Positions 28,783 to 50,157 of a stretch of DNA of 64,000 bases are shown piece after piece. This stretch comes from an uncultured delta proteobacterium (lineage in GTDB: Bacteria; Desulfobacterota; Desulfomonilia; Desulfomonilales; Desulfomonilaceae). The translations under genes were made by a program, and so were the position numbers. The DNA is taken from positions 96,001-160,000 of the forward strand of contig CAWBKB010000007.1 of the NCBI GenBank assembly GCA_963789265.1. Reading direction: 5' to 3'. Numbering within the stretch: position 1 is the first letter of the stretch; the number at the start of each line of letters is the position of its first letter. The notes under the pieces are model-generated. The model made no database searches. It saw only the letters and a list, made by a program, of their open reading frames with translations, and was not told the origin of the DNA.

Positions 28783-30915
28783 ATGGATGATTCGACCCGA
28801 ATCGTTGCCGATCCCAAAGATGAAACCAGTCCAAGTATGCTCAGCGATATGGAAACGGCGGCCGATCCGTCGGGGAGATCTCTGGCGCCTCAGCCGATCC
28901 CATCCAAGGAATTCCAGGAGCAGGCATTCAAATATGTGAGCCAATGGTGCAAGGCGGCCCGAGACTTCGTCAACAGGAAGGTCGAACGATGGAAGCTGCT
29001 GGAAGATCTGTATCACAACCGGCGGGAACTAAATTCCTGGTCAACCCGTTCGGATTCGATAGGCTCGCAGGGCCTGGCGGGGCTCAGGAAACAGTCCGGT
29101 TCGGCGAAAGACCGATGGCAGGCGGATATCATTCTGGCTCCCTCGTACATCGTGGATTCATGGGCGGACAGAGCCTATCAGTCAATCTTCAGCGGCCCTG
29201 AATGGCTGACCGTAATTCCCGAAAACCCTCAAGGGCCTACTACCGAGGATCTGCAATTCCCGACGTCATACAAGCTCCAGGAGCTACTTCTTGCGCGACT
29301 GGCCGAGGGCCAGATCCACGTGAGGCTCTATGAGATACTCCAACACCTGGTCCTATTCGGCTCCGTGTACGCCAAGATATTCTGGTACTCCAAGGGCGTG
29401 ACCCGACATCGGTGGGATTACGAAACCCTTGATGTTATCGAAGATGAAGAAAAGATCTATGATTGCCCCATCGTCCAGGTTATTCCTCTCGACCGAATCC
29501 TGCCGGACTGGACCGCGACCCACAGCGATGTGCAAAGGCATAGCGGAATCGGGCATCGTATTGATAAACCGTATGACCACGTAATCGAGCAGTTCGAACG
29601 GGGCGTATACAATCTTAACCGTGAAGAGTTTGTGACTCGCTGGGAAGACGTGCCCACTGCTACAACAACGGAGGATGACACTCTCCTCCATGATCCTGAT
29701 AGCGACGATCTCGACACCGATGAGATAAGGAAGGTCACTATCTGGGAATGGCACGGCCGGATTCCCACGGACAAAGGCCACAAAGAGTGCCTGTGTACCA
29801 TCATAACCGACAAAGGGGCCGATTCTCCGGAAAATGGGCTCCTCGTGCGTCTCACGGATACGCCGGTACTCTGGTCGGGACTAAGGCCGTTTCTCGCGGC
29901 GCATTACACGCCTCTTCCCGGGCCTCTCGGCATGGGGGCCGTGGAAAGCAACCTCGATCTCATTCACTCCATCTCGCAGTTCATAAGCCAATCCCAGGAC
30001 AATGCCAGACTGACGGCCAACGCTCAGCTTATCGTCCGCCGCGGCTCTTCAGCGGCCAGGCAGATCGGGACCGATTCGGATGTGGTCTACCCGGGAAAGA
30101 TATGGACCGTTGACGAACCGGGCGACATTCAACCCTTCCCGCCCCTGAACTTCCCTCAGCAGGAAGTGAACAGCCTGATTAATTACCTGAACGGTCTTCT
30201 GGAACGGCGCACCACAGTTTCGGATATGGCCCTGGGCGCGGGTGGCGCTTCAAAGACCGCGACAGAGGCTCACATTCTCCAGGAATCCGCCATCAATCCC
30301 TTTACTACCAGAACAGACCTGTTCGCTAGGAGTTTCCTGGAGCCGCTCGGTAGACTTGCCCTCTCGATGCTGCAACAGTTTCTGTTGGAGGATCAGACGA
30401 TCGCGGTACGCGATTTTAGCGGCCTGGACGTCCCTGTGACGGTTACCACCGAAGAGATACAGACAGGGCGCTATAGAGTAGTTGCTACCCTAACTCGGCA
30501 GGATTCAACAAGGCTCGCAAAGGCCCAGAGCATCGAGCGAGTCCTTCCTATTCTCGCGCAATTCCAGTCGATACTTGCAGGTGAAGGCGTACAGATCTCT
30601 TTTTCCGAGATCATAAAGCGCTACCTGGATCTCCTTGGGGTGGACGGTGCCGAACGTGTCCTGAGCCGGATACATCCTCTTCAAGGCGCCCCGCCGGGTG
30701 GAATGGCGATCCAAGACGCGGCGGAAAGCGGTCTGTCGCGGTTTCGTCCCCGCGGCGATCCGACTTTATCGGACAATGTTACAACCGGCCGGGAATCGCC
30801 CACTCCTCTCGTGAGGCACGGCGGACCGATGGGGCCTGAACCTACCGATGCTAATGCGCTGGCCCAATTTCTTCAGATTCAGGCGAATCAACCAACTCAG
30901 CAGGGGAGCTTATGA
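28783..30915 (+). CDS. Phage portal protein (P22/N4-like podovirus type)
   Basis: 710 aa; LVLFGSVYAKIFW, IWEWHG, PF....Y.P.PG..GMG, TATEAHILQES; first gene of the head module. Confidence 0.8.
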   Translation: MDDSTRIVADPKDETSPSMLSDMETAADPSGRSLAPQPIPSKEFQEQAFKYVSQWCKAARDFVNRKVERWKLLEDLYHNRRELNSWSTRSDSIGSQGLAGLRKQSGSAKDRWQADIILAPSYIVDSWADRAYQSIFSGPEWLTVIPENPQGPTTEDLQFPTSYKLQELLLARLAEGQIHVRLYEILQHLVLFGSVYAKIFWYSKGVTRHRWDYETLDVIEDEEKIYDCPIVQVIPLDRILPDWTATHSDVQRHSGIGHRIDKPYDHVIEQFERGVYNLNREEFVTRWEDVPTATTTEDDTLLHDPDSDDLDTDEIRKVTIWEWHGRIPTDKGHKECLCTIITDKGADSPENGLLVRLTDTPVLWSGLRPFLAAHYTPLPGPLGMGAVESNLDLIHSISQFISQSQDNARLTANAQLIVRRGSSAARQIGTDSDVVYPGKIWTVDEPGDIQPFPPLNFPQQEVNSLINYLNGLLERRTTVSDMALGAGGASKTATEAHILQESAINPFTTRTDLFARSFLEPLGRLALSMLQQFLLEDQTIAVRDFSGLDVPVTVTTEEIQTGRYRVVATLTRQDSTRLAKAQSIERVLPILAQFQSILAGEGVQISFSEIIKRYLDLLGVDGAERVLSRIHPLQGAPPGGMAIQDAAESGLSRFRPRGDPTLSDNVTTGRESPTPLVRHGGPMGPEPTDANALAQFLQIQANQPTQQGSL

Positions 30916-31196
30916 CCATGTTTTACAAGGAATATTTGCTGTTTCGCGACGGCTGGGACGAGGATTCGGAGAAAGAGATCGAGGAGAGCCTGGTTCATTG
31001 CGCAATGACCCCGACGTGGCAAAGCCAGTTCCTCCCTGCGTTCGTGGAACTGCTTAAACGAGAGCAATTTATCAAAATTATGGAATGCCTCGACAAAGAC
31101 AAGAACCTCGAATTCAACCGCGGCTTCGTCGCGGGAATCGATCTGGTCTTAAACAGGCTGGACCGCATCTATATCAAGGCCCGGCCCCGGAATTAG
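30912..31196 (+). CDS. Small head-module protein
   Basis: ATGA-coupled to the portal; EFNRGFVAGIDLVL-type helix common after podovirus portals. Confidence 0.65.
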   Translation: MTMFYKEYLLFRDGWDEDSEKEIEESLVHCAMTPTWQSQFLPAFVELLKREQFIKIMECLDKDKNLEFNRGFVAGIDLVLNRLDRIYIKARPRN

Positions 31197-31218
31197 CGGG
31201 AGACCGGCAGGAGGAAGC

Positions 31219-32001
31219 GTGAACCTCGAGGAGTTATCTCTGGATGAAAAGCCTTTCGAGACTCGAACGAATCCGGATGAATATGACGAGGCTCTCGATG
31301 ATGGGCAGGAACTCGACGATCTCTCGCGGTCAAACGACGGTGATGACGGTGGAGCGCAAGAGCCTACTGATTCGGAAAAGATTGAAGACAAGTTCTCTTC
31401 TCCGGAAGAGCTTATGGCCGCGTACAGGACAACGGAAAGCCGGTAGCTGGAGAAGGCCGGCGAAGCTGACGAGTACCGCCGCATGCTCGATCAGATGGGG
31501 CACAACGCCAGTGTGCTTCTTCGCCGTGCGGACGAGGATGCCTTCATACACGACATGCGTGAATCGTTCCAAAAGGACCCGGTGGCTACAACAGCCATGA
31601 TGATCAAGAAGTTTCAGGAAGGATCCCTGCACGACATCGAAGCCAGGATCGCCGGGACCGTTCGAGATCAAGAGAATTTCAGGAGCCTTTTCGACGACTT
31701 CTTGAATGACCCGGTGAATTCTCGCTTGAAACCCTACGAGCAGGAATTGGAGTTTCTTATTCGGGATAAAGGGCTCTTCCCGGATGAAGCCGCAAACTTG
31801 TTAAGGAGCGTCGAGAAGAAACGAGAGCTGGCGACAAAACGGAGATCCGCTGCAGCCAATGAGGTGAGAAACCGGGCTGCGGTCGAAAGTGGAGGCGAAA
31901 TCAACGAGCCGGTGGACAACGACAAGGATTTCTACCGCCGGATGAAAAAAGCCAAGACTCTGGACGAAATGTTCGCAGCACTGCGTAAGACAAAGTTCTA
32001 G
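31219..32001 (+). CDS. Putative capsid scaffolding protein with an in-frame TAG at 31444-31446
   Basis: Acidic N-terminus; KFSSPEELMAAY motif; the frame continues past TAG into the 31483 ORF; lies between portal and capsid. Confidence 0.65.
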
Positions 32002-32079
32002 AGCATGAGAGGAGGGGCTTCTGCGAATCTGGTCGCCAGCCTCTGCCTGCTCGGTGCTAGCTTAGCGCCGCGTTCGGCG

Positions 32080-32170
32080 GGACTCCCCCCTTTCTTAAAG
32101 GGGGGTTAGGGGTGATTTTGCTTTAACCTCTTGAAAATCCCCCTAAATCCCCCTTTAGAAAAGGGGGACG
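32080..32170. repeat. REP-like palindrome; related copy at 45104-45192
   Basis: CCCCCTTT...AAAGGGGG...AAATCCCCCTAAATCCCCCTTTAGAAAAGGGGGAC. Confidence 0.75.
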
Positions 32171-32299
32171 TTGAGGCCTCTCATCGCTCTAATGAAATTG
32201 CCCATAAGTCAACGCTTGTAGGGTTCTTCTGCATTACACCTAACCGCGGGTGCATACACGCTGCAAACCGCCCCAGAAAACACCAAGGAGTCAATTGAT

Positions 32300-33517
32300 A
32301 TGGCCGGAAACGTTTCTGATTTCATGAAGCTCTGGACCCAAAGCGACCAGGCTTCAGAGCGCCTGCTCCAAAAGTTCTTGCTCGTGGGACTGGACAAAGT
32401 CGTTCAAGGCCAGAGCGATGTCCTCGCCAAGATCCCCGTGGGTCAGCCCGCAACGGGGCCGGTGGTACGATGGCTGGAAGAATGGGGATATCCATCGCAA
32501 GTTACTGCAACCCTTGCCGGAAATATTTTGACATTTTCGGGCTATCTGTTCGGCCGTCCGGTAGATGCAGATTCCATAAAGAAAGTGATCCGAACCGGAA
32601 CCATCCTGGAACGCCCGACTGACGGAGTTCAGGCAAAAGTCTCGTCTGTAGACGGTTTAACCGCCACGGTCGCGGCCTACGGCAACACCACTTTGAGCAA
32701 CGATTCCGGATCGGTCGGCTGGGACATCATTTCTGAAGTGTGGTCCGACTACCGTGACGCCACTGACCCGCGATCTCTGGACAGGATCTTCCGAGAGGTC
32801 GGAACTCAGATCCATGCGGAGACCTTCGAGATTCCCAAGACCCGCAAAAACACCAAGTACGAGATCGTGGCCGATGAGACCCAGCATCAGATAACCGCGC
32901 TCTTGGACAAGCTCAGACGACAGCTCGCCTTCGCGGTGCTCCGCTCCAGGCCGTACTATGACGGTTCGGACTACGTGTACGGGAACAAAACGGAAGAGCC
33001 CACCATGTGCGGCCTTTGCACGTGGCCTGTGATCACGCAGAGCGAACTCTCCAATCCGAACGTGTACGTCAACAAGAACTCGGTTGCTCTGACAAAAACG
33101 GATCTGGACAATCTCGCCAGACACCTGTGGCTGGACGAACAGGCCGATTACAACAAAGGGGACTGGCACATAGTTTGCCACCCGCTCACGCACCAGTATA
33201 TCCACGATTTTGACATCTCGTACCGCAGAATGGAAAAGGACGAAAAAGGCGTCGGATTCTACGTGGATCATTTTGACTCCAAAATCGGCAAGAGTTTTCC
33301 GATTCTTCCTGACAGGTACATGCGGCCCGATGTGCTGATGATCGTCAACTTCGGTGCCACGAAATACGGCTATTTTGCCAACGACAGACTCGATCGCAAG
33401 GAGATCCCCACTCAGGGAAGATATCAGCGCTGGCTGATCTCCTTCCAGACTTACGGGGTGGTGGTTCGCGGGCCAAGATCCAACATCGGCATGATCTTCG
33501 GCCTGCCCACGAGTTGA
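32300..33517 (+). CDS. Major capsid protein (DUF5309/SU10-like HK97 fold)
   Basis: 405 aa; VRWLEE, TQIHAETFEIPKT, TMCGL, LTKTDLDNL pattern; AAGGAG RBS; follows the scaffold gene. Confidence 0.8.
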   Translation: MAGNVSDFMKLWTQSDQASERLLQKFLLVGLDKVVQGQSDVLAKIPVGQPATGPVVRWLEEWGYPSQVTATLAGNILTFSGYLFGRPVDADSIKKVIRTGTILERPTDGVQAKVSSVDGLTATVAAYGNTTLSNDSGSVGWDIISEVWSDYRDATDPRSLDRIFREVGTQIHAETFEIPKTRKNTKYEIVADETQHQITALLDKLRRQLAFAVLRSRPYYDGSDYVYGNKTEEPTMCGLCTWPVITQSELSNPNVYVNKNSVALTKTDLDNLARHLWLDEQADYNKGDWHIVCHPLTHQYIHDFDISYRRMEKDEKGVGFYVDHFDSKIGKSFPILPDRYMRPDVLMIVNFGATKYGYFANDRLDRKEIPTQGRYQRWLISFQTYGVVVRGPRSNIGMIFGLPTS

Positions 33518-33575
33518 TTCATGAATTTCATTTGATTGGCCGTGGAACTTGCTTACAGAGGCGAGCAACCGGCAT

Positions 33576-33855
33576 CCCGCGTCTCGCGCATAGGCGTTAA
33601 GTTAAGCAGCAATTTTGTAGGATGTGCTGAGCGAAGCGAAGCGCATCGATTGTGTAAGACGGAGCGCTGACGCGGCCGATGCGCTTCCCCTGCTTTGGCA
33701 GGGTTCAGCACATCCTACATGTTGAACAGCAGTTTTTATTACGCGGCGCACTTAACTTAACGCGAATGCACGTCTCGCGAGACCGGTCCTACTGGGTGCC
33801 AGCGTACGCGGGCATGACGATATGTAGGGACGGGTTTGAAACCCGCCCCTACCGA
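33576..33855. repeat. MITE/REP-like nested palindromes
   Basis: GCGTTAAGTTAAG...CTTAACTTAACGC termini (same end at 45024-45055); inner GTAGGATGTGCTGA...TCAGCACATCCTAC. Confidence 0.7.
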
Positions 33856-34035
33856 ACTTGCTCCCAGATGAATCGGTATCAGCCGTTCCAGAGTGACGAC
33901 AAAACCAATTTATTTCCCAATCAGCTCCCGGAGAAAAGCTTTTCTCCAAGGCCCGGCGCTTATTACTGAACTTTAATTGCAAGGGGACCTACCGCGGCTG
34001 GGCCGGGTCCCCACCTTCGAACCGAAAGAGGATAA

Positions 34036-34359
34036 ATGATGAAACCTGTTCCAAGGGATGATAACGGCCATCCGCTCCTGGACCGAGGCACGGAACTCTT
34101 CACGACTCGAATTGTAGGGCAAGACACCACAATGTCGCCGTTGGCATTGCCTACTGATTGCAAGGAGGTGCTCTTGCACGTGGAATCAGGGACCGAGATC
34201 CTGCTCGTGAGCGGCACCATAGAGGGCTCCACTGCCGCCAGGCTTACGGATTCCGGTTTCAGTTGGGCGGTTCCCATCACAGCGGCGAGTGGCAGCACTA
34301 TTGCCTATCTGGCTGCCGCGACGGGCACGTGCAACATAAGCATCTTTGCTTGGAGGTGA
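34036..34359 (+). CDS. Small virion-associated beta-rich protein
   Basis: RBS; position after the capsid gene. Confidence 0.55.
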   Translation: MMKPVPRDDNGHPLLDRGTELFTTRIVGQDTTMSPLALPTDCKEVLLHVESGTEILLVSGTIEGSTAARLTDSGFSWAVPITAASGSTIAYLAAATGTCNISIFAWR

Positions 34360-34362
34360 AAT

Positions 34363-35658
34363 GTGGGCAACATGGTTATCGTTGCCGGCCGAGGTGGGCA
34401 AAGCGCCCCTACGGGTATTGAGCGAATTACCGTGCCGTCAGGTCGCTTGACCGTCCCTCCTGCTTACATGCAGACTTCCGGCGATGCTGCTGTTCAGTCG
34501 AGCGTGGCAACCGGCGGTATGGCCTTTTTCGGCTGGACTCAAGAAGCGGATTTTGCTCTCTCTTCGTTCAGCGTTTATCTAAACACCGTGACAACGCCGG
34601 GGATCTTTTCGTGGAACCTCTCTGAGGCAGATTCGAACGGTGATCCAATAGTTGGAGACGACGATCCTTACGGTGAAATTACCAGCGGGTCAAGCGCCGG
34701 AGTTTGGTTACGGACGACATTTGTGCCGGTACAGCTACAGCGTGGGAAAAGATACTGTCTTGTTTTCGGCGTGTCAGGATCATGCAACGTTTCTTATTCT
34801 GCTCGCAGGCAAAATCCGGCCATAGGCTCAGGGCATCCCCCGGGCTGTTGGAGCAAAACGAGCACGGACGGGGGAACGACCTGGTCCGATCTTCAGCAGG
34901 ACTCGCGGCCGGCTCTCTTGAATTTAGTGCTCAATTCCACTGCCCATCACTCCCCACAACTTTACTTCGGTCAATATTCCGGCGAGTCCGTGTACCTGCC
35001 GGGAGCGGGCCTACGAACGATTCCTCCGGTAGGAATCCCTTTTGATTGCGAAAGCTTGACTCCAGATACGCTTTACAATGTGTATTTGTGGGACAATACC
35101 GGCACGTTGACACTGGAAGCAGCGACTACGGGTCGCACAATGAGTGAAGGTATCGAGATCAAATCTGCATCACCGGGAGGGCTTTATCTGGGGCTCATCT
35201 ATCCCATCGAGAGACAGTCCGGCTTTCAGGCCCCAATCAAAGTCCCCGATTGGATGGGAGTGTATAACGCCTACAGCCGGCGCACGACCTTCGTGGGCAA
35301 GCCCAATCCCTACTCAGCAACGACGGAGGGTTCAGGATCAGACACCAATTGGGTCGCTATCAGCGATTTCGCGGCCAAGTTTGTGACAGGGGAGCAGTGC
35401 CGGTTGGCGTCGGACTTCGGCCTCGCGTCAGTGAACTCCACAAGACTTACCATCTTGCTGGACGGAGTCGCCCTGCCCCTTGTTCCCATAGTATGGACCA
35501 CTCGCACATCGGATCTTGTCTCTGTTCACGCCGAATTCGTGCTGTCCGAAGGTTGTCACACGGTGTGCCCTGCCGCGTCCGGATGGCCTGCCTTCGATTA
35601 TTCCCTGTACGATCCTATATACGGAAGCAGTTCATTGACAGGGGAGATCATGGCGTAA
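34363..35658 (+). CDS. Putative tail fibre/decoration protein
   Basis: S/T/G-rich beta composition; LTPDTLYNVYLWDNTGTLTLE and GVYNAYSRR motifs seen in tail fibres. Confidence 0.55.
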   Translation: MGNMVIVAGRGGQSAPTGIERITVPSGRLTVPPAYMQTSGDAAVQSSVATGGMAFFGWTQEADFALSSFSVYLNTVTTPGIFSWNLSEADSNGDPIVGDDDPYGEITSGSSAGVWLRTTFVPVQLQRGKRYCLVFGVSGSCNVSYSARRQNPAIGSGHPPGCWSKTSTDGGTTWSDLQQDSRPALLNLVLNSTAHHSPQLYFGQYSGESVYLPGAGLRTIPPVGIPFDCESLTPDTLYNVYLWDNTGTLTLEAATTGRTMSEGIEIKSASPGGLYLGLIYPIERQSGFQAPIKVPDWMGVYNAYSRRTTFVGKPNPYSATTEGSGSDTNWVAISDFAAKFVTGEQCRLASDFGLASVNSTRLTILLDGVALPLVPIVWTTRTSDLVSVHAEFVLSEGCHTVCPAASGWPAFDYSLYDPIYGSSSLTGEIMA

Positions 35659-35762: not shown

Positions 35763-36116
35763 ATGTCCCCCAACATGTCCGATCGCGAATTGCTTGAACA
35801 TCTCAGGCTTGACGTGGCCGTCATCAAAGAGAAGCTCCCTCTTCTCGAAAAAATCAGCAATTGCCTGAGCAACCTGAAGAGCAACTGCCGGACCCGCCAC
35901 GAGGATTTGGAGAAGGCACGCCATCGGCGGCACGAAAGACACGAAGTACGATTCTCCGAGCTGGAAACAGCACAAAGAATGGCCCACACCTTTTACGAAG
36001 CTCACGCCTCGTGGACAAATAGGCATAGAGCACTCTTCTGGTCCTCCGTAGTCGCGGTCGCTACCTCGGCGCAGGTGCTGGCGACAGTTATCTTGCACTT
36101 CTTGTCGGTACATTGA
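35763..36116 (+). CDS. Coiled-coil protein with a C-terminal TM (lysis-module-like)
   Basis: Single C-terminal hydrophobic helix. Confidence 0.55.
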   Translation: MSPNMSDRELLEHLRLDVAVIKEKLPLLEKISNCLSNLKSNCRTRHEDLEKARHRRHERHEVRFSELETAQRMAHTFYEAHASWTNRHRALFWSSVVAVATSAQVLATVILHFLSVH

Positions 36117-36472
36117 GCCACGGAATCAGAACTAACCGCAGAGAACGCTGAGACCGCAGAGTAAAACAAAACTTGTTCAACGTCATGCGCGTCATCAATG
36201 CGAGTAGCAGGGCCGCATTTGCCTGCATTGTCACAGACCGGAATGGGCCGTGCTCCATCAGTTAGACGGGCACGGGAAAATAGACTTCTCCGCGGTCTCT
36301 GCGATCTTCGCGGCGCATCCTCAATGCCCGGTGAACGTCTGCACTAAGTGAGTCAGAACAGCGCCGGGGAACTTCACCATAATAGACCGAAATCTCCTTT
36401 GGCAACGGGAACTTGATCCAGCAACTTGGCTTGGACTTGACCAGGCTAGAATTCGCTTAGTTGGGAGGCGCC

Positions 36473-36772
36473 ATGTTGAGAGAAATCAAACAGTGGATTA
36501 TCGCATCGACCGCCGGGGTTCTCGGAATCGCCGCATTGCTTTTCGTGAGCCCATGGGTACTCCCGGACGATCCGGCCGCTCTCTTGCGCTACGTCATCAT
36601 CCGGGTGATTGCGGTATTGATTGGCATGATTGCCCTGACAGGAGGAATGCTCTTCGTGGATTTCATAACCCCTGACGATTGGATGGATGGAATTGGGAAA
36701 GACCATACAGCTTCAGCTATTCTCATGTCTGCTGTCGTGCTTGTTATTGGCGCAATTCTTTGCTGGACCTGA
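36473..36772 (+). CDS. 3-TM membrane protein (DUF350/holin-like)
   Basis: GGAGG RBS; VDFITP..W...I....TASAILMSAV. Confidence 0.65.
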   Translation: MLREIKQWIIASTAGVLGIAALLFVSPWVLPDDPAALLRYVIIRVIAVLIGMIALTGGMLFVDFITPDDWMDGIGKDHTASAILMSAVVLVIGAILCWT

Positions 36773-37211
36773 CGCCTGGGCTCTCACTCCGGCTTACCGG
36801 AGCTCCCTGAAGCGGCAGTTAACATTCATCGTAGCAAAACATCCGAAATATTCCTGGGGCGGGAGTGACAGCCTCGATCTGGGATTGGACTGCTCAGGCT
36901 ACATTTTCCTAGCTTCCAAATGGGCGGGAATTCCCGGGATCACTCGCACCACTGCATTGCGCATGTCGTTGGGATTGGGTGGGTGGCAGGGCAAGGACAT
37001 CGACCGCTCCCAGGCTGATGAATGTGACCTCTCATTTTGGACGTTCAAAGAAGAGAGGCTAAACGGCCACGTTGGAGCCTTCCTTTGCGGGCCTGACAAT
37101 GCAATGCAGGTCACTCACGCCAGCCTGAGAAGAGGTATCGTGCTCGATCGGCTAGATGGGCTGCTCCTGCAAAAACTAACCAAGGTTCGAAGACTAACCA
37201 TAGGAGACTGA
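36687..37211 (+). CDS. NlpC/P60 (C40) cell-wall peptidase
   Basis: YSWGG...GLDCSGYI...GHVG...THAS; signal-like N-terminus. Confidence 0.85.
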   Translation: MELGKTIQLQLFSCLLSCLLLAQFFAGPDAWALTPAYRSSLKRQLTFIVAKHPKYSWGGSDSLDLGLDCSGYIFLASKWAGIPGITRTTALRMSLGLGGWQGKDIDRSQADECDLSFWTFKEERLNGHVGAFLCGPDNAMQVTHASLRRGIVLDRLDGLLLQKLTKVRRLTIGD

Positions 37212-37213: not shown

Positions 37214-37411
37214 ATGGATTCAACAAAGGTATGGTGGACTTCAAAAACAATATGGACGAATGTCATTGCCTTGATAGGGTCAGTTGTTATCGCTGTAGGC
37301 TTTGATCCCGGACGTTGGGCTGAGATTTCGACTGTTTCACTATCTGTGGTGAACCTGATTCTCAGGCTTTACACAAAGGAGCCCATTTCTCTCGATTCGG
37401 GAGGGAATTGA
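37214..37411 (+). CDS. Putative holin
   Basis: KVWWTSKTIWTN...VNLILRLYTKEPI; 2 TM; precedes an endolysin. Confidence 0.7.
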   Translation: MDSTKVWWTSKTIWTNVIALIGSVVIAVGFDPGRWAEISTVSLSVVNLILRLYTKEPISLDSGGN

Positions 37412-38721: not shown

Positions 38722-38813
38722 AACAAGCCCCCTAGTTCTTCCCCCGCGAGAGTGAATGGTTGCCTTTGGAGCCCCTCGGGGGGACCGGCCTTTCACGGTT
38801 TCAAGAAAGGGAT

Positions 38814-41800: not shown

Positions 41801-43978
41801 TCGCAGTGTTTCTGAACGGCGCATGGAAAAGCATAGTCCAGCAGAGCGGGGGCACTTGGCAATATCTTGACGGTTCGAGTGCCTGGCAGAACGCGTCTTC
41901 CAATACCCTCTTGTCCGCACTTCGTCAGGCCCTCGCTATTTCTGCAAATCAGATGACCGGGGCACAGGTCGCCGCGATAACCTCAGTCCAGTGGTCGTCG
42001 GCAGGCGGATTTGTGCCCCATATTACTCAGACCTTGGATTTTGCATTCAGGCTCGAAGCTGACCAGACAACTTTGACAAACTTACCAACCTTGACCAGCT
42101 ACACACTCACGTACGAGACGAGCGGTAGCACTACAGGGATAATGCAGGTTCTGGGAAAACGGGCGGTGGACCGACATAACCGACTGGACGGATGGAACAC
42201 TGGCCAATGGCAACCGACTCGCTCAATCGGGAATCATCGGCGGGCCTGCCGTCACCGCGGATTACTCTGTCTTGAATGGAGTGCCGGGTTTCTGGTACCG
42301 ACTCAAAACCAACGGGACAAGCCCCCTTTGTGCGATAACCGAGATTCGGTACAAGGCGCCGTGTCAACCGCTTTCGAATATCGGAGACGGGCAACCTGAC
42401 ATCGGGCAGGTCATTCTTCACATGATCAGTACCGGCGCAAGTCCGCAAGATATCTCTGTTGCGATGGCAGACAACACCCTTACCTCTTTGGCATCCGCGG
42501 GGATCCCCATGACCGCGACTGACTTTCTGTACGTGGGATACCCGACTCACTTCGATGAAGTGGAGATCACACCGTACGCGGACCCCAGCGATACAACGTT
42601 CACGAATAATCAGGCGACTTCGGAACTTTCCGCGGATTACTGGAATGGCGAAGCCTGGGTTGCTCTGACGATCAATGACAGAACGATCGGCGGATCGAGC
42701 AATACTTTTGCTGAGAAAGGACGTATTTCATGGACACTTCCCTCGGACTGGCAAACAAGTATCCCGTTCGATGCGTTTTTCTCAAGAGGCTACTGGCTTC
42801 GCTTTCATGTATCCGCTGCGCTCGCAAGCACCGCTGCGCTCTCGGAAGTTCGGGTGTACGGAGTCCCGAATTCCTTAAAAAAATACAGATTCGTGAGTAC
42901 TTTCGGCAATCGTATAGCCCTGGGGAATCGTTCTGATGCGCCGGATCAGGTGGACATTTCGCGACAATTCGAGGAGTACGGATACACAGGCCAAGACTCC
43001 GCGAGTTTCCGGCTTGGCGGGGAGGACCAGATTGCATCAATGATGGCAGCCTGGGACGGGTTGCTCATCGGCAAGACTGGGACTTTTCACTTCCTGCAAG
43101 AGGGAGCCGAAAGTTTCCAGAGTGTGGAGGCAGGGCGTCACGTTCCGATCAATACGCAGGTGATGGTGAAAGCCCCGCTCGGGGGATTCGATTACGGTGA
43201 TAGATACGGTCTTTTCTTTATTAATCGGTATGGTGCTTTCTTTTCTACCGGCTTGCACACTGACAGTATATTCAATACTTCTCGCGGCAAAACCATAAGC
43301 GATGTGCTCAATTGGTGGGATTCTTCTATAACGCCAAGATTAGACTTGGATTACCTACACCTGGCCTGCGGCGAGTACTGGCCGGCGAAGAATTGGGTTA
43401 TATGGGCAGTTCCGATGATATTTTCGGGGCAGGGCCCGCAGGCTGCTAATAATGCGCTCATCGTTTATGATTTGACCCTCGGGGCTTGGTTGCCTCCGTT
43501 CGTCTTCCCGTTCGGGATGGCTGCCCTGAGCACCGCCTACCATTACAATGCCGATGATCCTCAGAAGCTCGGGGATATGGGGCTGTACGCAGGGGATTAT
43601 GAAGGGCGCGTAATAAGATTGTTCCCGCCGGGCATTACCTCTGATTTGGGCTCCACAATTTCCGCTTGGGCAGAGACTGGATGGCTCGACTTTGGTTCGC
43701 CGGAATACAGGAAGCTGCTACGAATGCTCTCCCTGTGCGGCAAATCCGAGAATCACATGATAACCGTGAACATGTTCAGCGATGGAGAAACGTGTGTTCC
43801 CGTCGTCGTCGAGTATCAAAACCTGTCAAGTTTGGGAAGTCATAGCTTCGCGTTGGAGCAGGAACCCAACAATCTCCAGGGCCGTTTCTTCAAGTTCCGG
43901 ATTGCGTTCAGTGCTGAGAGTGAGGTTCACGGACTTCAGATAGCCATGTCACTGGTCCGCGAATGGGGGTCGTTGTGA
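38814..43978 (+). CDS. Giant (~1720 aa) tail tubular B/nozzle-like protein with Kelch repeats; split by frameshifts near 39376 and 42145-42220
   Basis: N-terminal DWTGGI...ENVD...GSLRTRPG; Kelch repeats (RIGHSAV..VFGG...NDLW); C-terminal ETGWLDFG...KLLR...GRFFKFRI; joins ORFs 38760, 39214 and 42272. Confidence 0.7.
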
Positions 43979-44045: not shown

Positions 44046-44888
44046 ATGCCATCTCCAAACTATGGAGGAAAATTGTCCGGGAACTTCGGGAGCTACTCGT
44101 CCTCAAGAGACAACCCCTTCCTGGAACCGAGCAGACAAATAGCTGACTTGATCGCGCGGCTGTCCAGTGCGCAGATGCAGGGATCAGCGAGCGGAACACC
44201 GGGAATCAACAGTGGATCATTCTCCTGGCAGAGCCACGCGGCTCGCCCCGCAGATCCCGAGGTGCGGGACTACATGTCCAACGTCCTGGGAGGGCAACGC
44301 AACACTCTCGATGACTACGTGCGCAGGGCCGCAGGCGCGAGCATCAAGCGCGGTGGAAAGACCACTGCCGGCGGGCCGCCCCTGGACTCCGCGTTGTACC
44401 AGCAAGCCATAGAAAGTCTTGCAAAGGGCTATGGAGACCGGTTCCGTGATGCAATGAATTACAACCGATACGTGAAAGGAACCGAGTCGAGCCAGGTCTC
44501 CGATAACATGAGAAACTTGCAGAACCTTCTGAGCCTGCAGCAGCGCTATCTTTCCAGCGCTACAGATTGGAAACAGAAACAGACAAGCTTGCCCGGCGTA
44601 ACCACGAATCCGGACGCCGACCTGGACCGCGCCTTGAAGGCGCTTTCCCTGGAGCACCTGCGCCGCCAAATGGAAATGGAACAATGGCAGAATGCGGCTA
44701 CTAAGGATGATCGCCAGAAAGCTTTGGACGAAAAAATTGCGGCTGAAGAAAGGTGGGCAGGGCTCGCGGTAAAACCCAGTTTGACATGGGGTCCGGGAGA
44801 TGCTGCGTTCAACGATCTGGCTGGAATCAGAATCGGTTACCAGTCGCCGTGGCAGCGAAAAATGTCGCTTAATCGCCGCGGATTGTAA
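44046..44888 (+). CDS. Putative internal virion / DNA ejection protein
   Basis: G/S/Q-rich helical protein after the tail; AAGASIKRGG...AIESLAKGYG resembles P22-type ejection proteins; AGGAGG RBS. Confidence 0.5.
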   Translation: MPSPNYGGKLSGNFGSYSSSRDNPFLEPSRQIADLIARLSSAQMQGSASGTPGINSGSFSWQSHAARPADPEVRDYMSNVLGGQRNTLDDYVRRAAGASIKRGGKTTAGGPPLDSALYQQAIESLAKGYGDRFRDAMNYNRYVKGTESSQVSDNMRNLQNLLSLQQRYLSSATDWKQKQTSLPGVTTNPDADLDRALKALSLEHLRRQMEMEQWQNAATKDDRQKALDEKIAAEERWAGLAVKPSLTWGPGDAAFNDLAGIRIGYQSPWQRKMSLNRRGL

Positions 44889-45704
44889 GCAACGAGTCTT
44901 TAGTTCATCGTTACATATACGTGGTCGCGGATTCAGAACAGGGGCGGCAGGGGGAAACTGTCTCAAACGTGCGGACGAAGTCGATATCGTGCCACGAAAG
45001 TCGCTAGAGTTCTGGTTCCCAATCCCGCGTCTCGCGCATTCGCGTTAAGTTAAGGCAATTTCGCTCCCTTTTCAGGAGGTCCATGCAGGCCGAGGGGGAT
45101 CAAAGTCCCCCTTTTCTAAAGGGGGATTTAGGGGGATTTCCAGGGGGTTAGCATAAAATCCCCCCTAGCCCCCCTTTACGAAAGGGGGGAACCCCGCGTC
45201 TCGCTGGACCGCCTGGGAATCCCGCGGGGCGCGGGACTCTGCCCGCAAACTGCCCCCATTTCATTATCATAGTCGAGGTAGAGCTTGGCGCTAGGCATTC
45301 CCAGGCAGAGCCAGGGAACGAGAAAAAAGGCGTCCTCAATTATTTGGCTTTCCTGATTTCGGTTATGACGCGGAATGGCAGCTCCCCTACAGAGCGCTCT
45401 CCAAGCCGCCCCGCAGTGGTTCCCGATTTTTGAGTTGACAAATTAGGTTAATTATGGTCCCATTGCCCCCAACAGAGAACATGTGTTTTCCATTGGGCGC
45501 CCGGCAACCAAGTGGATTGCTGTCAGGCTTCCATTTGGAAAGGCCCATCAATGACCCGACGAGTTAACCTAAGAAGTTCATAATCTGTCGGCCGCCACCT
45601 GATTGGGCCTATCGCCGGGCCTTAACGTCGAAGATCCCTGGAAGAGGGACCAACGAGGGAGGCTTTTCTGCCGACCTCGCAATTCCAAAGGTTGGAGGCG
45701 GATC

Positions 45705-45935
45705 ATGGAGAGAGTCAATCATCGCAAACTTGTGTCTCATTCATTCGACAAGCTCCACGAGCAACTTTCCGTTCTCCGAGTCCATGTGGAGGAAATGGAC
45801 GACCCCGTGGCTCGTCGGCATTTGGAATCCATGGAGTATGGCCTGCTCGCGCCCATGCGCAAGCTCAGAATACATCTGGGCATCCCGTACGACTGGCACG
45901 AACAGAGGCCCACACTCAAGGAGGCGACTCGATGA
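45705..45935 (+). CDS. Hypothetical protein
   Basis: GGAGG RBS; coupled to the next gene. Confidence 0.6.
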   Translation: MERVNHRKLVSHSFDKLHEQLSVLRVHVEEMDDPVARRHLESMEYGLLAPMRKLRIHLGIPYDWHEQRPTLKEATR

Positions 45936-46318
45936 GCCAAGGTGCCCTTACCGTCGAACAGTGGAAAGAGATGAACGCTCATAAGCTGATTGAATGTCGC
46001 TGGGGCTGCAACATTAGTTTTGAAGCGTGCCGCCTGTACCAGGCAAGGACCGGACGTTACGTGCTTCACTTCAACGGCCAACGAGAGCCGTATCCGCGGA
46101 TCAACGCGGATTACCTGAGGTGTTTCTTGCCGGAACCTTGTCCCCACGTGATATCGGACGATGAAATCCGCGGCCTGGAAGCAACGCTCGGCCCCGTTAA
46201 TCACCGCCCCCGTCCGGAACGTCGCGAACGGTCACGGCATGCGAGGGAGTTGGATCGCCTCGTAAATCCCGATCTCATGTTGCGTGAAGCCCGGTGGAAT
46301 CGTTCCCTTGTCCGGTAG
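45932..46318 (+). CDS. Hypothetical Cys-containing protein
   Basis: AAGGAGG RBS; ATGA overlap. Confidence 0.6.
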   Translation: MSQGALTVEQWKEMNAHKLIECRWGCNISFEACRLYQARTGRYVLHFNGQREPYPRINADYLRCFLPEPCPHVISDDEIRGLEATLGPVNHRPRPERRERSRHARELDRLVNPDLMLREARWNRSLVR

Positions 46319-46527
46319 CAGTTCACCGCGGAGGACGCAGAGACCGCAGACGGACTTGGTCCGTTTCGCTTTCGTTGCCGGGCTCCGCCTGGCAATGCAT
46401 GCTCTTAGGGCTCGGCCCGAAATAAGAACAGCGATTGATCCCTCTCAGTTTGCAGAAAACCGGAGGCAAAACCTCCCCATGAGCGTTCCAGGCAAGAGCC
46501 TGGGAACGAGGATTAAAGGATGTCTCG

Positions 46528-46937: not shown

Positions 46938-47261
46938 ATGCAAATTCCAGAAAAACTGACAATCTTCTCCAGAACCTACGATGTCCATGATGTGGACCCG
47001 ATACATGCTTATGATGGGCTACTGGGGTTGGCGGCTTATCGGGATGGTGTGATCTATCTTGACCGAAATATGGACCCGCCCCTGGCGCTGAACACCCTCT
47101 GGCACGAAGCATTCCACATCGCGCAACAAGAGATTCTTGGAACCGTAGATGAAGCCCAGGCCAGATGGGTATCGCTATTCATTCACACCTTCCTTTTGGA
47201 AAATCCTGCCATCCTGCAAAGCTATCTCGACGCATCGAGTCCTGCCTCCTTTCACGAATGA
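46938..47261 (+). CDS. HExxH metallopeptidase-like phage protein
   Basis: LLG......IYLD......NTLWHEAFH......DE. Confidence 0.7.
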   Translation: MQIPEKLTIFSRTYDVHDVDPIHAYDGLLGLAAYRDGVIYLDRNMDPPLALNTLWHEAFHIAQQEILGTVDEAQARWVSLFIHTFLLENPAILQSYLDASSPASFHE

Positions 47262-47355: not shown

Positions 47356-47766
47356 ATGACCCAAAAAAGAAAACGCTTAATTGAGGTGGCCCGTGATGCC
47401 CCTTCACCAGAGGCCGATGGATCGGCAACGGCCGCCGAGGCTGGATTCGACCCTTCTTTCCTCGCCCAAATCCGGGAGTTGGCCGCGTCGGGGCTGACGT
47501 CTTCCTCCGCGCTATCGCTGATCACGAAGCTTATCGCCGAAACTCCCGGCGCATCCAAAGAGGCAATGGACCGGATCAAAATGATGGACAAACTTCTCAA
47601 TACCGCCCGAGCAATGATGGAGACTCGGCTGAAAAATGAGGAAGCCGCAGCCATCACCGCAAAACTCGATGAAATGGAACTTCTGATCGAAAAGCTGGCG
47701 ATTCAAAGGGCAGGTGAACCTAATCGGTGCGTCGAAGTCAGAGACGGTCGCGGGCAGGATGAGTGA
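47356..47766 (+). CDS. Putative terminase small subunit
   Basis: Helical 136-aa ORF overlapping the TerL start. Confidence 0.5.
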   Translation: MTQKRKRLIEVARDAPSPEADGSATAAEAGFDPSFLAQIRELAASGLTSSSALSLITKLIAETPGASKEAMDRIKMMDKLLNTARAMMETRLKNEEAAAITAKLDEMELLIEKLAIQRAGEPNRCVEVRDGRGQDE

Positions 47767-49483
47767 ATCTGTACATCCTGAACAAGCTGGCTTCCGGCGG
47801 TCGAGGATGCGGCTCGAAAGATTGTCGGAACGTTTGCAACAGCTTGCGCCCCGTCCCGGGGAGGAATTGTTCCATATTCAGCGGTTCATCGAGGATCTAA
47901 AGATCATCAATAAAAGGGGCGAACTGGTCTCCCTCATCATGAACCGGTCCCAGGAGACGGTATTCCACAGGCTCATGGAATGTCGTGAAAAGAAAGTCCC
48001 GGCCCGTTTCATCTGCTGCAAGTCCCGACAACTTGGTATCTCCACGCTTATCGAGGCATTCATATTTGCCCTGATCACACACTATCCCAACCGGTTTGCT
48101 CTGGTCGCGGCAAATTCCATTGAGAGCGCCCAGACGATCTTCGCGATGGCTCAGCGTTTCCTCCGTTACCTTGGACCCCGTCACACCCCTCGTCCGGCCA
48201 CTGTCAACGCACGCCGAATTGAATATCTGCCGCCTCATCATTCACGGCTGCAAATCGACACGGCCGCGAACAAGGGCCTGGGACGAGGCGGCACTCTTCA
48301 CTATGTCCATGCCAGCGAAGTGGCCTTCTGGGAGAAGGCTGAAGATCCGATTCTAGCCATCAACCAGTCGGTCCCACAGCACTGGGACACTCTCGTCTTT
48401 TGGGAATCCACGGCAAATGGAATGCACAATCTATTTCACCGAACGTGGATAACCGCGGAACGCGGGGAATCGGACATGCAGCCCATATTTCTTTCTTGGA
48501 AAGGATTTCCGGAGTACAGCCTTCCCGTGGCAGAGCGAGAACAACTCGACCTTACCCCGGACGAGGAAGTCTATGCCCGGAAATACGATTTGAAGACAGA
48601 CCAGATCAAATGGGCTTGTTACACGAGAAAGAATCAGTGCCACAACTCCTGGGAAAAATTCCATCAGGAATACCCTGTGGCCCCACAACTTGCCTTCACC
48701 TTCACAGGAATGCCCTGGTTCAACCAAGATGCGATTCAAGAGTCGCTGGAGAATTTGGCCCGGCCTCCGCTTAAACGCGGGAATCTGGAGTTCTCGGCTG
48801 ATGGTGCCTCAATCCCCACTTTTGTAACAGACCCAACAGGGCCTCTGGAAGTTTGGAGGCAGCCCGAGCCGTCGCACACATATAGCATTGGAATGGATGT
48901 CGGGGAAGGCGTCGCCGCGGATTACACCGTTATTCAGGTTATATGCAACGAAACGGGCGAAGTGGTTGCACGTTACCGCTCGAACCGCGTCCGAGCCGAA
49001 ACCGCGGGAGTAGACGCATATCTTCTCGGAACGTACTACAACTTCGGGCTGCTCGGGATCGAGCGCAACGGTCCCGGTCTCGCCTCGCTCGCGGCATGCG
49101 AACGAGGGCTGTCGGAATATCCGCAAATGACCGGATATCCCAACCTCTACTATCACACTTACACTGACCGCAAGATCCCGGAAGAGACCCGACGTTTGGG
49201 ATGGATCACCAACAAAACCACTAAAGAAGCCATGCTGAGCAGACTGGCACTGACTTTCGAGAGCCGCGGGCTCAAGATATACAGCAGAACCACTCTTCTC
49301 GAAATGCAAGGCTTTGTCTGGGATGCCGAGAAAAGATGCTTCAGGCAGAATTACAAATCTCCAGATTCACGGCTTGCTCACGACGATGAGATCATGGCCC
49401 TGGCGATAGCCAACGAGATGCGATCTCACTCGTGGGAAAACCGCTTTATTCACGGCCGACTGCCTCGCGGAGGGGAGTTTTGA
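47759..49483 (+). CDS. terL: Terminase large subunit
   Basis: Walker A KSRQLGIST, Walker B VHASEVAFW, ESTANG, nuclease GMDVGEG...DY, IERN, HDDEIMALAIA. Confidence 0.93.
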   Translation: MSESVHPEQAGFRRSRMRLERLSERLQQLAPRPGEELFHIQRFIEDLKIINKRGELVSLIMNRSQETVFHRLMECREKKVPARFICCKSRQLGISTLIEAFIFALITHYPNRFALVAANSIESAQTIFAMAQRFLRYLGPRHTPRPATVNARRIEYLPPHHSRLQIDTAANKGLGRGGTLHYVHASEVAFWEKAEDPILAINQSVPQHWDTLVFWESTANGMHNLFHRTWITAERGESDMQPIFLSWKGFPEYSLPVAEREQLDLTPDEEVYARKYDLKTDQIKWACYTRKNQCHNSWEKFHQEYPVAPQLAFTFTGMPWFNQDAIQESLENLARPPLKRGNLEFSADGASIPTFVTDPTGPLEVWRQPEPSHTYSIGMDVGEGVAADYTVIQVICNETGEVVARYRSNRVRAETAGVDAYLLGTYYNFGLLGIERNGPGLASLAACERGLSEYPQMTGYPNLYYHTYTDRKIPEETRRLGWITNKTTKEAMLSRLALTFESRGLKIYSRTTLLEMQGFVWDAEKRCFRQNYKSPDSRLAHDDEIMALAIANEMRSHSWENRFIHGRLPRGGEF

Positions 49484-50157
49484 CAGTGCGTGCGGAATAC
49501 CTGGAAGACGGCGCGATAGCGGTAATCGGGACAAAGGGAAAACAAACCTTCAACAAGGTTTGGGCCGGGATCGGCTGGCCGGACAGTGAAGCCGGTTACA
49601 TATCTATTGTGGGCGAGCGCGCAGACCACCGATATCATGCGCTGTGGGAGAAGACCGGCGGCCTGTGGGAACTGGGAGTAGCCGCGGTTGAAGCCAAGAA
49701 TCGTTTGCTAGTCGACAACATCTGGGTCGATTCCCGCGATGCGGTCGCAACCTCGTATCTCAGGACCCTGCCCGGCCTGTGTTTCCATGAGGAGCCGTCC
49801 AAGAGGGCTTTAACGACTGTCGTCGGAACTCATCCTCCGGCCAAAGCGTCGCGTTTCACAGAGCCGGAAACGATGGCAAGCATAATGTCGGTTCCCGAGC
49901 GGGCCACAACAAACTATCGGTCCGCTCTTGAGAATACGAGAGGTGTGATAATGGCTTCTAAACTTCTGATACACGAGCAGAACTGCCCCAAACTGGTCTA
50001 TGCACTGAGACAGCCTCTGGAAGATCTGCTCAGATCGCCTGTCATGAAGGGCTTGGTTTGGGTACTGACGGCTCTTGAGGAAGCCGGGAGAAACGCGGGG
50101 CTGGAGCTTTCCGCATCGGACCCCTGGTACGCCAATACGCCGAGGCGGCGAATATAA
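49480..50157 (+). CDS. Hypothetical protein coupled to TerL
   Basis: TTGA overlap; AGIGWP...GYISIVGE. Confidence 0.65.
   Translation: MTVRAEYLEDGAIAVIGTKGKQTFNKVWAGIGWPDSEAGYISIVGERADHRYHALWEKTGGLWELGVAAVEAKNRLLVDNIWVDSRDAVATSYLRTLPGLCFHEEPSKRALTTVVGTHPPAKASRFTEPETMASIMSVPERATTNYRSALENTRGVIMASKLLIHEQNCPKLVYALRQPLEDLLRSPVMKGLVWVLTALEEAGRNAGLELSASDPWYANTPRRRI

Follow-up and report, generated by a model that had tools for sequence, protein, structure and literature searches.

The locus described here raises two questions, namely whether a block of phage-like genes in the genome of an uncultured bacterium is a prophage or a particle that the host has made its own, and, if the latter, what such a particle would carry. 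It lies in a 64-kb stretch of DNA (the window, G000:C7:96001-160000) from a member of the Desulfomonilaceae, a family of soil sulfate reducers; the 6.06-Mb assembly (genome G000) consists of 9 contigs with a G+C content of 52.5%. Positions 28783-50157 of the window contain about 20 co-oriented genes that form a podovirus module of about 21 kb of the type found in phage SU10, referred to here as the cluster. An initial annotation had proposed a domesticated particle resembling a gene transfer agent (GTA). Judged from its sequence, the cluster is well supported as a domesticated phage-derived particle cluster and not a prophage, and it is very likely that the domesticated particle is functional. 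Other Desulfomonilaceae genomes are denoted G001, G003 and so on, genera g9, g11 and so on, and extracted loci L016 and so on.

Gene content, descent and selection of the cluster

Gene identities were assigned using Pfam with curated cut-offs and PHROGs, membrane helices were predicted from hydropathy, and dN/dS values were calculated with the Nei-Gojobori method (NG86). Three genes scored well above the cut-offs of SU10 families, namely the portal (PF23899; 56 bits, cut-off 30), the major capsid protein (MCP; PF17236; 108.3 bits, cut-off 24.1) and the adaptor (PF24175; 63.5 bits, cut-off 27), and a fourth product has a predicted nozzle domain of podovirus fold. Altogether, the cluster encodes a head (portal, scaffold, capsid), the means of filling it (the small and large terminases, TerS and TerL), a short tail (adaptor, nozzle) and lysis functions (holin-like protein, NlpC/P60 hydrolase, M15 peptidase). 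This is the set of co-oriented podovirus-like genes listed by the initial annotation, and the Pfam and PHROGs matches and the nozzle fold agree with it for the portal, capsid, lysis, adaptor, nozzle and TerL genes; the scaffold and TerS are assigned only by position and by homology to relatives. The genes are as follows.

28783..30915, +, portal; PF23899 SU10_portal 3.4e-15, phrog_332, phrog_1216; identity in relatives 63-92%, dN/dS 0.06-0.12
30912..31196, +, conserved 94-aa protein between portal and scaffold; identity 83-100% in 8/10 relatives, dN/dS 0.00-0.08
31244..32001, +, scaffold-like protein, in two frames here (break near 31440); role from position and relatives' homology
32300..33517, +, major capsid protein MCP1; PF17236 SU10_MCP 6.6e-31; 74-98% identity across the family, dN/dS 0.03-0.08
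34036..34359, +, conserved 107-aa protein after the capsid gene; present in 9/10 relatives, dN/dS 0.03-0.20
34363..35658, +, variable 431-aa protein (622 aa in G069); identity 39-85%, no BLAST match in G003; no family match in Pfam, PHROGs or PADLOC
35763..36116, +, 117-aa protein with C-terminal membrane helix (hydropathy); dN/dS 0.04-0.13
36461..36772, +, holin-like protein with three predicted membrane helices (hydropathy); weak DUF350 match; adjoins the hydrolases
36687..37211, +, NlpC/P60 cell-wall hydrolase; PF00877 9.1e-06, above cut-off; N-terminal signal or anchor (hydropathy)
37408..37878, +, M15 peptidase (endolysin-type); PF08291 6e-12, phrog_894 endolysin
37894..38568, +, head-to-tail adaptor; PF24175 SU10_adaptor 4.7e-17
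38760..43978, +, giant gene of ~1740 aa; N-terminal Kelch propeller, fast-changing middle, C-terminal tail nozzle as modelled below
44046..44888, +, conserved 280-aa protein; in 9/9 cluster-bearing relatives, dN/dS ~0.2, no family match
45692..46318, +, conserved Cys-rich protein (conservation in relatives); true start probably internal to the open reading frame (ORF)
46938..47261, +, small HExxH (zincin-like) protein; HEAFH motif, phrog_1233, weak DUF6782 match
47356..47766, +, candidate TerS; overlaps the TerL start; conserved in relatives, dN/dS 0.12-0.21, no family match
47714..49483, +, TerL; phrog_2 4e-22; dN/dS 0.06-0.09
49432..50157, +, conserved 241-aa protein following TerL; also encoded as its own ORF in relatives, dN/dS 0.15-0.20

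Scans with Pfam and PHROGs of the ORFs in the cluster and both flanks recovered no integrase, replication or repressor families, no repeats bracket the cluster, and the 64-kb window contains no tRNA genes. The initial annotation had likewise seen no such genes, and the features by which a prophage is recognised (integrase, att repeats, repressor and replication genes) were not found. On the same contig, PF00589 is matched no closer than C7:357896, at a distance of 211 kb from the cluster.

The three ORFs at 38760-39512, 39214-42399 and 42272-43978 are pieces of one giant gene: Kelch Pfam matches lie on either side of the first break, and G003, G005, G010, G023 and G069 each have an uninterrupted homologue, of 1604-1791 aa. 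The break zones were mapped to ~39347-39380 and 42126-42152, with two single-base frameshifts at ~39376 and 42149. A first AlphaFold2 (AF2) model of the C-terminal 568 aa, built from 8 sequences, had a predicted local distance difference test (pLDDT) score of 42.6 and was unusable. A profile search of 1.84 billion representatives with the nozzle part retrieved 2483 relatives at E <= 0.001, many of them ~800-870 aa long, and an AF2 model of 42272-43975 from a 47-row alignment reached a pLDDT of 85.4. Its best Foldseek matches in the PDB were the podovirus nozzles of cyanophage A4, SU10 (7z4b, 7z47), Pa223, VP1, P22 gp10 and T7 gp12 (E 2.5e-12 to ~1e-8, TM-scores 0.34-0.52), and the giant protein is therefore modelled as a nozzle bearing a ~1100-aa N-terminal arm with a Kelch propeller. 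PHROGs searches with nine nozzle homologues of ~800 aa gave weak 'internal virion' or 'structural' matches only, and a sequence search of solved structures gave chance-level matches only for the nozzle part, the middle of the giant protein and the 280-aa and 241-aa proteins. An Atlas lead that placed the 241-aa product (49432-50157) in a terminase C-terminal family was not confirmed by a profile search of solved structures.

The middle of the nozzle gene has diverged far more than its surroundings, with a dS value of 2.9 against G001 compared to 0.96 and 1.23 for the two gene ends and ~0.4 for the remainder of the cluster, and protein identity in this part drops to 27-39% within and between genera. 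The middle of the arm has been exchanged by recombination, in the manner of the host-recognition parts of phage tails, which suggests that the particle meets varied targets.

The G000 copy of the cluster contains three apparent frameshifts, two in the giant gene and one in the scaffold-like gene. The latter is a single 255-aa ORF in G069, and its frame is open ~110 aa further upstream in G001, G003 and G005 and closed in G000. The rpoB gene (G000:C3:808232-812601) is likewise broken over three frames in G000 and is found in one frame of 1415-1456 aa in relatives, whose RpoB match the G000 query only to residue ~741. G000 thus carries single-base indel errors, and frameshifts in this genome are not readable as pseudogenes. 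Contigs from two public runs (X1 and X2, from one study) were compared with the locus at the frameshift sites. The base at 42149 was missing in X1 (depth 5.21 of 5.21) and in X2 (3.4 of 3.4, with no other difference in the record), and the base at 39376 was missing in one X1 contig (depth 2 of 2), which may come from a close strain given three nearby substitutions. Both positions fall exactly in the mapped break zones. No indel was seen near the scaffold break at 31440 in the X1 and X2 contigs. The best-matching run may be the source sample of the assembly. Since rpoB is frameshifted as well and the extra base is absent at two sites in contigs of other runs, the frameshifts in G000 are probably assembly errors, and the same reading is the most likely one for all apparent inactivating lesions in the cluster.

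To define the distribution of the cluster, we searched 70 Desulfomonilaceae genomes. The MCP family was present in 47 of these, representing 21 of 26 genera; it was found in 20/24 other genomes of the family and in 0/16 genomes of the sister family in the same class. TerL matches were obtained in 43/70 genomes, in 38 of them at 56-100% identity. The remaining matches, of 38-43% identity (G048, G064, G065, G067, G071), were not counted as cluster. The portal and capsid genes of the cluster are missing from G048 and from the three g14 genomes (G064, G065, G067); those of G071 are diverged (portal 36%, capsid 67%). All 58 loci in species-representative genomes were from organisms labelled Desulfomonile, Desulfomonilaceae or, in older records, 'delta proteobacterium' or Syntrophaceae. 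Among 50,697 phage records, the MCP had no tblastn match, the portal had three weak matches and TerL was at most 30% identical to any phage TerL; in IMG/VR, only 3 fragments were found (65-93% identity).

The full gene order is kept in five genomes of the same genus and, at lower identity, in G010, G023, G015, G012 and G069 from other genera. The neighbourhood is also shared, in that the upstream genes for MazE and a cyclophilin-like protein recur in G003, G005, G023 and G015, and the downstream LysR, FlK and HMGL genes in G001, G006, G010 and G069. Several lineages have host genes within or between the parts of the cluster. In G023, a ZnuABC operon separates the capsid gene from the cluster gene that follows it, genes for TPR, methyltransferase and PIG-L proteins are inserted in the cluster of G015, and in g11 and g28 the capsid gene is surrounded by housekeeping genes and separated from the portal and TerL genes, which lie together on another contig. 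The lone capsid gene (L057 9075-11215, and homologues in L051, L052, L054-L056, L058 and L064) has dsrC upstream and genes for a PocR-PAS histidine kinase, HIT, PRPP synthetase and L25 downstream. Ahead of it lies an ORF of 177 aa that is conserved in that group of genera; in L057 this ORF has no similarity to the scaffold and was rejected as a scaffold gene.

Two further irregularities were noted in relatives. The portal homologues of two g11 species (G016:C38:38212-40152 and G061:C6:273195-275135) each contain one in-frame TGA and are otherwise full-length with 60% identity; the TGA could be a shared readthrough or selenocysteine codon, a sign of a pseudogene, or an error. G002, a metagenome-assembled genome with 7% contamination, has two full-length TerL copies on separate contigs (G002:C4:19021-20739 and G002:C8:31281-33011; 88% and 87% identical to the query), reflecting either two strains binned together or a duplicated cluster.

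To quantify selection, we estimated dN/dS for the 22 comparable ORFs. The values were 0.03-0.27 for 21 of them; o31244 and part of o46568 were close to 1, the former being a frame artefact and the latter a doubtful ORF. The dS values of the cluster equal those of the flanking genes, at ~0.3-0.5 against G001 and ~0.9-1.4 against G003. We also examined the congruence of TerL and RpoB trees for 19 genomes, the 18 relatives being those with complete TerL and RpoB, with other cluster-bearing genomes left out. Nine of 16 splits were common to both trees, including every well-supported pair, compared to an average of 0.36 and never more than 3 when the labels were shuffled 1000 times. The Mantel correlation of path lengths was 0.39, a value reached by 15/999 permutations. 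Vertical inheritance under purifying selection of the cluster within the Desulfomonilaceae, in which it would be as old as the family itself, is thereby strongly supported at the sequence level. The initial view of a long-resident, domesticated podovirus-type particle is upheld by the synteny at the same locus in same-genus and other-genus genomes, by dN/dS ratios far below 1, by dS values as in the flanks and by a tree agreement far above that for shuffled labels.

The second capsid protein and the toxins

The capsid gene is the only cluster gene that has a second copy in G000. The product of this copy, MCP2 (C7:228357-229571), is 70% identical to MCP1, and its gene is followed after 128 nt by that of a 307-aa protein whose nuclease domain is CDI EC869-like; a CdiI immunity gene comes next. 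In a tree of 49 full-length copies, from which partial copies and copies with stops were left out, MCP1 (37 copies) and MCP2 (12 copies) were separated with SH-aLRT support of 97 each. MCP2 is 62-70% identical to MCP1, has dN/dS values of 0.04-0.11 and occurs only in genomes that also hold the cluster. Nothing is conserved upstream of it; immunity genes and orphan cassettes lie downstream. It matched SU10_MCP only and no encapsulin family, and it co-occurs with the portal and terminase cluster. PADLOC gave no match for MCP2, the toxin, the immunity protein or the unassigned cluster proteins, and BLASTP of the MCP2-linked toxin against the cluster proteins at 34363-35658 and 34036-34359 gave no match.

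Through the MCP2-linked toxin we found a common N-terminal domain of polymorphic nuclease toxins, here called toxN, which covers the first ~75 residues and consists of two conserved blocks joined by a basic linker. The C-termini of 17 toxN proteins from related loci were EC869-like, AHH, NucA/B, Tox-REase-5, DUF2380 or unassigned. A collection of 5.8 billion proteins contained 76 toxN proteins with at least six toxin families, including GHH and LHH nucleases, and wherever the organism was named it was a member of the Desulfomonilaceae or carried an older label for the family. Cognate immunity genes lie directly downstream (CdiI after EC869-like, Imm11 after AHH toxins), with tandem immunity copies and orphan cassettes, such that both the common N-terminal domain with varied toxin C-termini and the immunity genes with orphan cassette arrays that characterise polymorphic toxins were found.

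The occurrence of toxN follows that of the cluster. It was found in 23/70 family genomes, all 23 of which have a TerL match (22 at >=64% identity, plus G071), and in 0/27 genomes without one. MCP2 or a remnant of it was seen in 16 genomes, all of them toxN-positive, and MCP2 and toxN are adjacent in 14 of these; in the exceptions, MCP2 is split (G004) or MCP2, MCP1 and toxN stand in a row (G013). A toxN start was located within 350 nt downstream of 10/12 MCP2 copies versus 1/37 MCP1 copies. Co-oriented toxN ORFs were observed inside the cluster or within ~2.5 kb of it in at least 11 of the 23 toxN-positive genomes (G000, as a remnant, G001, G002, G003, G004, G006, G009, G013, G015, G023 and G072), the other assemblies being too fragmented for a judgement. 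They occupy five positions: before the portal gene, after the portal gene, after the nozzle gene, after the HExxH gene (G001, G003, G006) and after the last gene, where intact toxN genes are present in G003, G006, G009 and G015. The window contains two toxN features.

16216..17625, -, toxN-AHH nuclease toxin and Imm11 immunity gene (PF14412, PF07791; toxN match), 11 kb upstream of the cluster
50923..51006, +, remnant of a toxN toxin start (toxN match), 770 nt after the last cluster gene

The toxN-AHH toxin gene (16828-17625, - strand) has one in-frame TGA after residue 19, which may be a substitution error or a real inactivation. Some ORFs in the clusters of relatives have the first toxN block only. 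A 275-aa ORF in the cluster of G003 (L016 6928-7755, - strand) starts with a variant of the first block, RAKRWWFAQVNP, a sequence that hints at a tag family wider than the profile used.

No signal peptide or known trafficking domain was detected on the toxN proteins, and an RRWWF motif considered as a Tat signal was dismissed, as no hydrophobic stretch follows it. The MuF domain had no match in the 23 cluster ORFs or the 17 toxN proteins. In predictions of a complex between MCP2 and residues 1-80 of toxN, we obtained a weak score of 0.40 (0.40, 0.50 and 0.10 in separate runs), with 0.00 for the best control, a partner pLDDT of at least 54 and agreement between runs in at least 52% of contacts. 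In the calibration of the tool, its mark was reached by 116/157 solved complexes and 2/215 mismatched pairs; at scores <=0.60, those reaching the mark were 18 of the 157 solved complexes and both mismatches.

Repeats and neighbouring genes

The spacers at 32053-32183, 33565-33678, 36124-36319, 38607-38759, 44939-45330 and 46320-46351 contain hairpin-forming, REP-like repeats, each with 8-99 BLAST copies spread over all large contigs of G000. The initial annotation had placed members of these families next to housekeeping genes as well; this was confirmed for copies at 6300-6328, 24707-24740 and 60825-60852, and the copy proposed at 4981 was not recovered. The main repeat features are listed below; the translation of ORF 33679-33969 matches dozens of places in the genome, and this ORF consists of repeat sequence and is probably not a gene.

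27890..28706, no strand, upstream non-coding region with two dispersed repeats (27890-28019 and 28547-28706; 77 and 75 BLAST copies) and hairpin folds
32053..32183, no strand, dispersed REP/MITE-like element in a spacer (63 copies; inverted copy at 45092-45197)
33565..33969, no strand, repeat element with ORF 33679-33969 (22 repeat copies)
44939..45330, no strand, composite of dispersed repeats in an 800-nt spacer (69 copies; strong hairpins)

As identified with Pfam and PHROGs, the upstream flank encodes a WD40 kinase, a Mut7-C RNase, a cyclophilin-like protein and a MazEF pair. The kinase gene (20912-24595, - strand) encodes 1227 aa, with a Ser/Thr kinase domain ahead of numerous WD40 repeats, and it is found in the same place in G003 at 71% identity. 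Downstream are an acidic-repeat ORF, a restriction-modification pair, a P63C protein, an IS1595 transposase and a protein with a Dsr1-like region. The acidic-repeat ORF (50279-50581), directly 3' of the last cluster gene, is made of 9-nt repeats, ends in ~60 Asp/Glu residues with spaced Trp and is 87% identical to its counterpart in G001 over the first half. The stretch from 50.6 to 59.2 kb is a later insertion, since it is low in G+C and missing from G001, where LysR and FlK follow the cluster after ~4 kb. This island (50600-59200) contains the following genes.

52427-53194, restriction enzyme-like ORF, facing the methylase, in the island
53187-54107, N6/N4 methylase, facing the restriction enzyme-like ORF, in the island
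54134-55036, P63C protein, in the island
55033-55902, IS1595 transposase, in the island
57056-58750, 564-aa protein with Dsr1-like region (PADLOC PDLC04166, 4.6e-17), in the island

Function of the particle and comparison with known systems

The reading that we consider somewhat probable as a whole is that the cluster is an ancient remnant of a short-tailed phage of the SU10 type that now belongs to the host, i.e. a viriform in the sense used for GTAs, and that it serves as a toxin weapon. A subpopulation of cells would make the particles and lyse, and the particles would bind other cells via the fast-changing arm of the nozzle protein. In lineages that have them, including G000, the particles would carry polymorphic nuclease toxins, directed into the head through MCP2 by the common toxN domain, and the immunity genes adjoining each toxin would protect kin; in this way the particle would be a weapon against other bacteria, perhaps in addition to transferring packaged DNA. 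The parts of this account differ in strength. That the toxN toxins are cargo of the particle has, in our estimate, a little less than an even chance. The more specific scheme, in which MCP2 loads toxins by means of the ~75-aa toxN tag, the HExxH protein may process the tag and the Kelch-nozzle arm picks the rivals, is put forward more tentatively still. The conserved terminase implies that DNA is packaged, and the chances are evenly balanced that the particle also, or instead, transfers random host DNA. The initial annotation had offered a protein-delivery particle as an alternative to a GTA, and this option gains unexpected support from the toxin cassettes and the capsid paralogue.

A number of observations weigh against this account. 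About 15 cluster-bearing genomes are without toxN, which makes the toxins an add-on and not the core function, and an older core function beneath the toxin carriage may be gene transfer. The cluster in the window has only the toxN remnant and no intact toxN gene, MCP2 was not seen in 7 of the 23 toxN-positive genomes, and no MuF, ejection or internal-core proteins were recognised in the cluster. Clustering of toxin cassettes in genomic islands also occurs for reasons that have nothing to do with function, and related genomes are not independent, such that the co-occurrence counts for toxN and MCP2 overstate the support. By the calibration of the tool, a score as weak as the one obtained for MCP2 and toxN misleads more often than not, except where the pairing was already probable. 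As for the cluster itself, no TerL match was found in 27/70 family genomes and no MCP match in 5/26 genera; some of the cluster-negative genomes are 99-100% complete, and complete genomes of g32, g9 and g33 are without MCP and TerL. TerL is in pieces in G004, G006, G059 and G062, which could reflect decay or sequencing error. Of the three frameshifts in G000, absence from other contigs was shown for two only, and the correction at 39376 rests on the single depth-2 contig that differs at three nearby bases. No regulator of particle production was identified, and no RNA run was listed with the locus.

Several of these points can be read as signs of a functionless, decaying prophage on its way to loss, as can the repeats that fill the spacers, the frameshifts, the fragmented TerL genes and the lineages without the cluster. 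This is very improbable, since dN/dS has remained at 0.03-0.27 across the cluster after divergence at dS values above 1, intact ORFs occur in the same order in distant genera, and the frameshifts in G000 extend to rpoB and are missing from other contigs at two sites. The opposite possibility, an active temperate phage or helper-using satellite that integrates at one preferred site in many hosts, would account for the full set of head, tail, packaging and lysis genes and for the 3 fragments listed as viral in IMG/VR. It is the least credible of the alternatives, as no integrase, replication or repressor genes and no bracketing repeats were found, the synonymous divergence and the trees follow those of the host, and host operons have been inserted into the cluster or its genes dispersed, as in g11.

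More serious is the explanation that the particle is a classical GTA only, which packages and transfers random host DNA, with the toxN cassettes and MCP2 being neighbours by accident or the toxins being exported otherwise. TerS and TerL are conserved under purifying selection, the cluster occurs without toxN in ~15 genomes and without an intact toxin gene in the window, and polymorphic toxin cassettes commonly accumulate in variable regions, all of which would fit. We nevertheless consider it rather unlikely, because toxN is confined to cluster genomes (23/23, compared to 0/27 of those without a TerL match), the cassettes are co-oriented at five different intergenic positions of the cluster, MCP2 and toxN are adjacent in 14/16 genomes, and no signal peptide or known trafficking domain was detected in the toxN proteins. 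Finally, MCP2 and the toxins might act apart from the tailed particle, as an encapsulin-like shell that stores toxins or as a capsid-sensing abortive-infection module. In favour of this, strong purifying selection acts on MCP2, its gene is found at a distance from the cluster with no conserved genes before it, and toxN is weakly predicted to bind it; yet MCP2 is restricted to cluster-holding genomes, remains 62-70% identical to the particle's own capsid protein and matches neither PADLOC models nor an encapsulin family, and the toxins are paired with immunity proteins in the classical manner of toxin systems that act between cells. This leaves it improbable, and the phage-derived particle with toxin cargo remains the account that we prefer.

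GTAs and other viriforms, including the RcGTA-type Rhodogtaviriformidae, are phage-derived and vertically inherited (Kogay et al. 2022, PMC9662315). The cluster is GTA-like in that it has genes for head, tail, packaging and lysis but none for replication, integration or lysogeny, in its vertical inheritance and purifying selection, and in its split loci in some lineages. It is unlike RcGTA in that its structural genes are of the SU10 podovirus type and not the siphovirus type, with no family in common and a different host family, and unlike GTAs in its embedded polymorphic toxin cassettes and second capsid paralogue. The delivery of toxins by phage heads has been proposed before: prophage remnants with terminase, portal, capsid and MuF genes were suggested to load polymorphic toxins for delivery (Zhang et al. 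2012, PMC3482391), and MuF toxins of temperate phages have been described (Jamet et al. 2017, PMC5576092). The MuF systems and the cluster share polymorphic toxins, often nucleases, that are encoded with phage-derived terminase, portal and capsid genes, and a proposed loading of the head. They differ in that toxN, known from Desulfomonilaceae-type records only, takes the place of the MuF domain, a dedicated capsid paralogue heads the toxin islands, and the carrier is a vertically inherited cluster of podovirus type and not a temperate phage. Judged from the sequences, the toxN trafficking domain, the capsid paralogue and the vertically inherited podovirus-type carrier would thus be new compared to the MuF systems; the logic of head loading was already proposed. 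A search of open-access papers and preprints recovered no paper that links Desulfomonile to GTAs or describes the cluster, and for Desulfomonile and prophage none that was relevant by title or abstract.

A structural counterpart is phage SU10 (Kuravirus; PDB 7z4b and 7z47), with which the cluster shares portal, capsid and adaptor families and the nozzle fold. Unlike in SU10, the nozzle is fused to the ~1100-aa Kelch arm, no fibre, needle or replication genes were recognised, and sequence identity is too low for BLAST. PBSX-type particles and tailocins are also phage-derived, kept by the host, released by lysis and active on related strains; their tails are contractile or flexible and they need no dedicated toxin cargo to kill, whereas the cluster encodes a short tail and its toxins come from separate, exchangeable genes that have immunity partners. 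In type VI secretion systems (T6SS), a structural paralogue outside the main cluster, vgrG, heads an effector-immunity island, and in phage T4 capsid targeting and encapsulin cargo loading a short terminal tag sends cargo into a shell. The layout of MCP2 and its toxins resembles the former and toxN would resemble the latter, in logic only and with no homology. Among sulfate reducers, Dd1 of Desulfovibrio desulfuricans, a bacterium of a different order, is reportedly a short-tailed transducing particle (Rapp and Wall, 1987, are said to have described it), which is the likeness to the cluster; we know of no account of its genes.

Few GTAs have been characterised, almost all of them derived from long-tailed phages, and a family-wide cluster of the short-tailed type, with clean signs of selection, widens the routes by which phages are known to become domesticated in a group of environmentally common anaerobes. 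The link to toxins provides a concrete system for testing the old prediction that phage heads deliver protein toxins between bacteria, and since the Desulfomonilaceae include cultured members, proteomics and genetics are feasible. The apparent address tag toxN, with its matching shell subunit, could also serve to load proteins into phage-like particles. If the toxin account is true, the cluster would be the first tractable, vertically inherited case of the capsid-packaging secretion route predicted in 2012, built by the Desulfomonilaceae from parts unlike those of the MuF systems.

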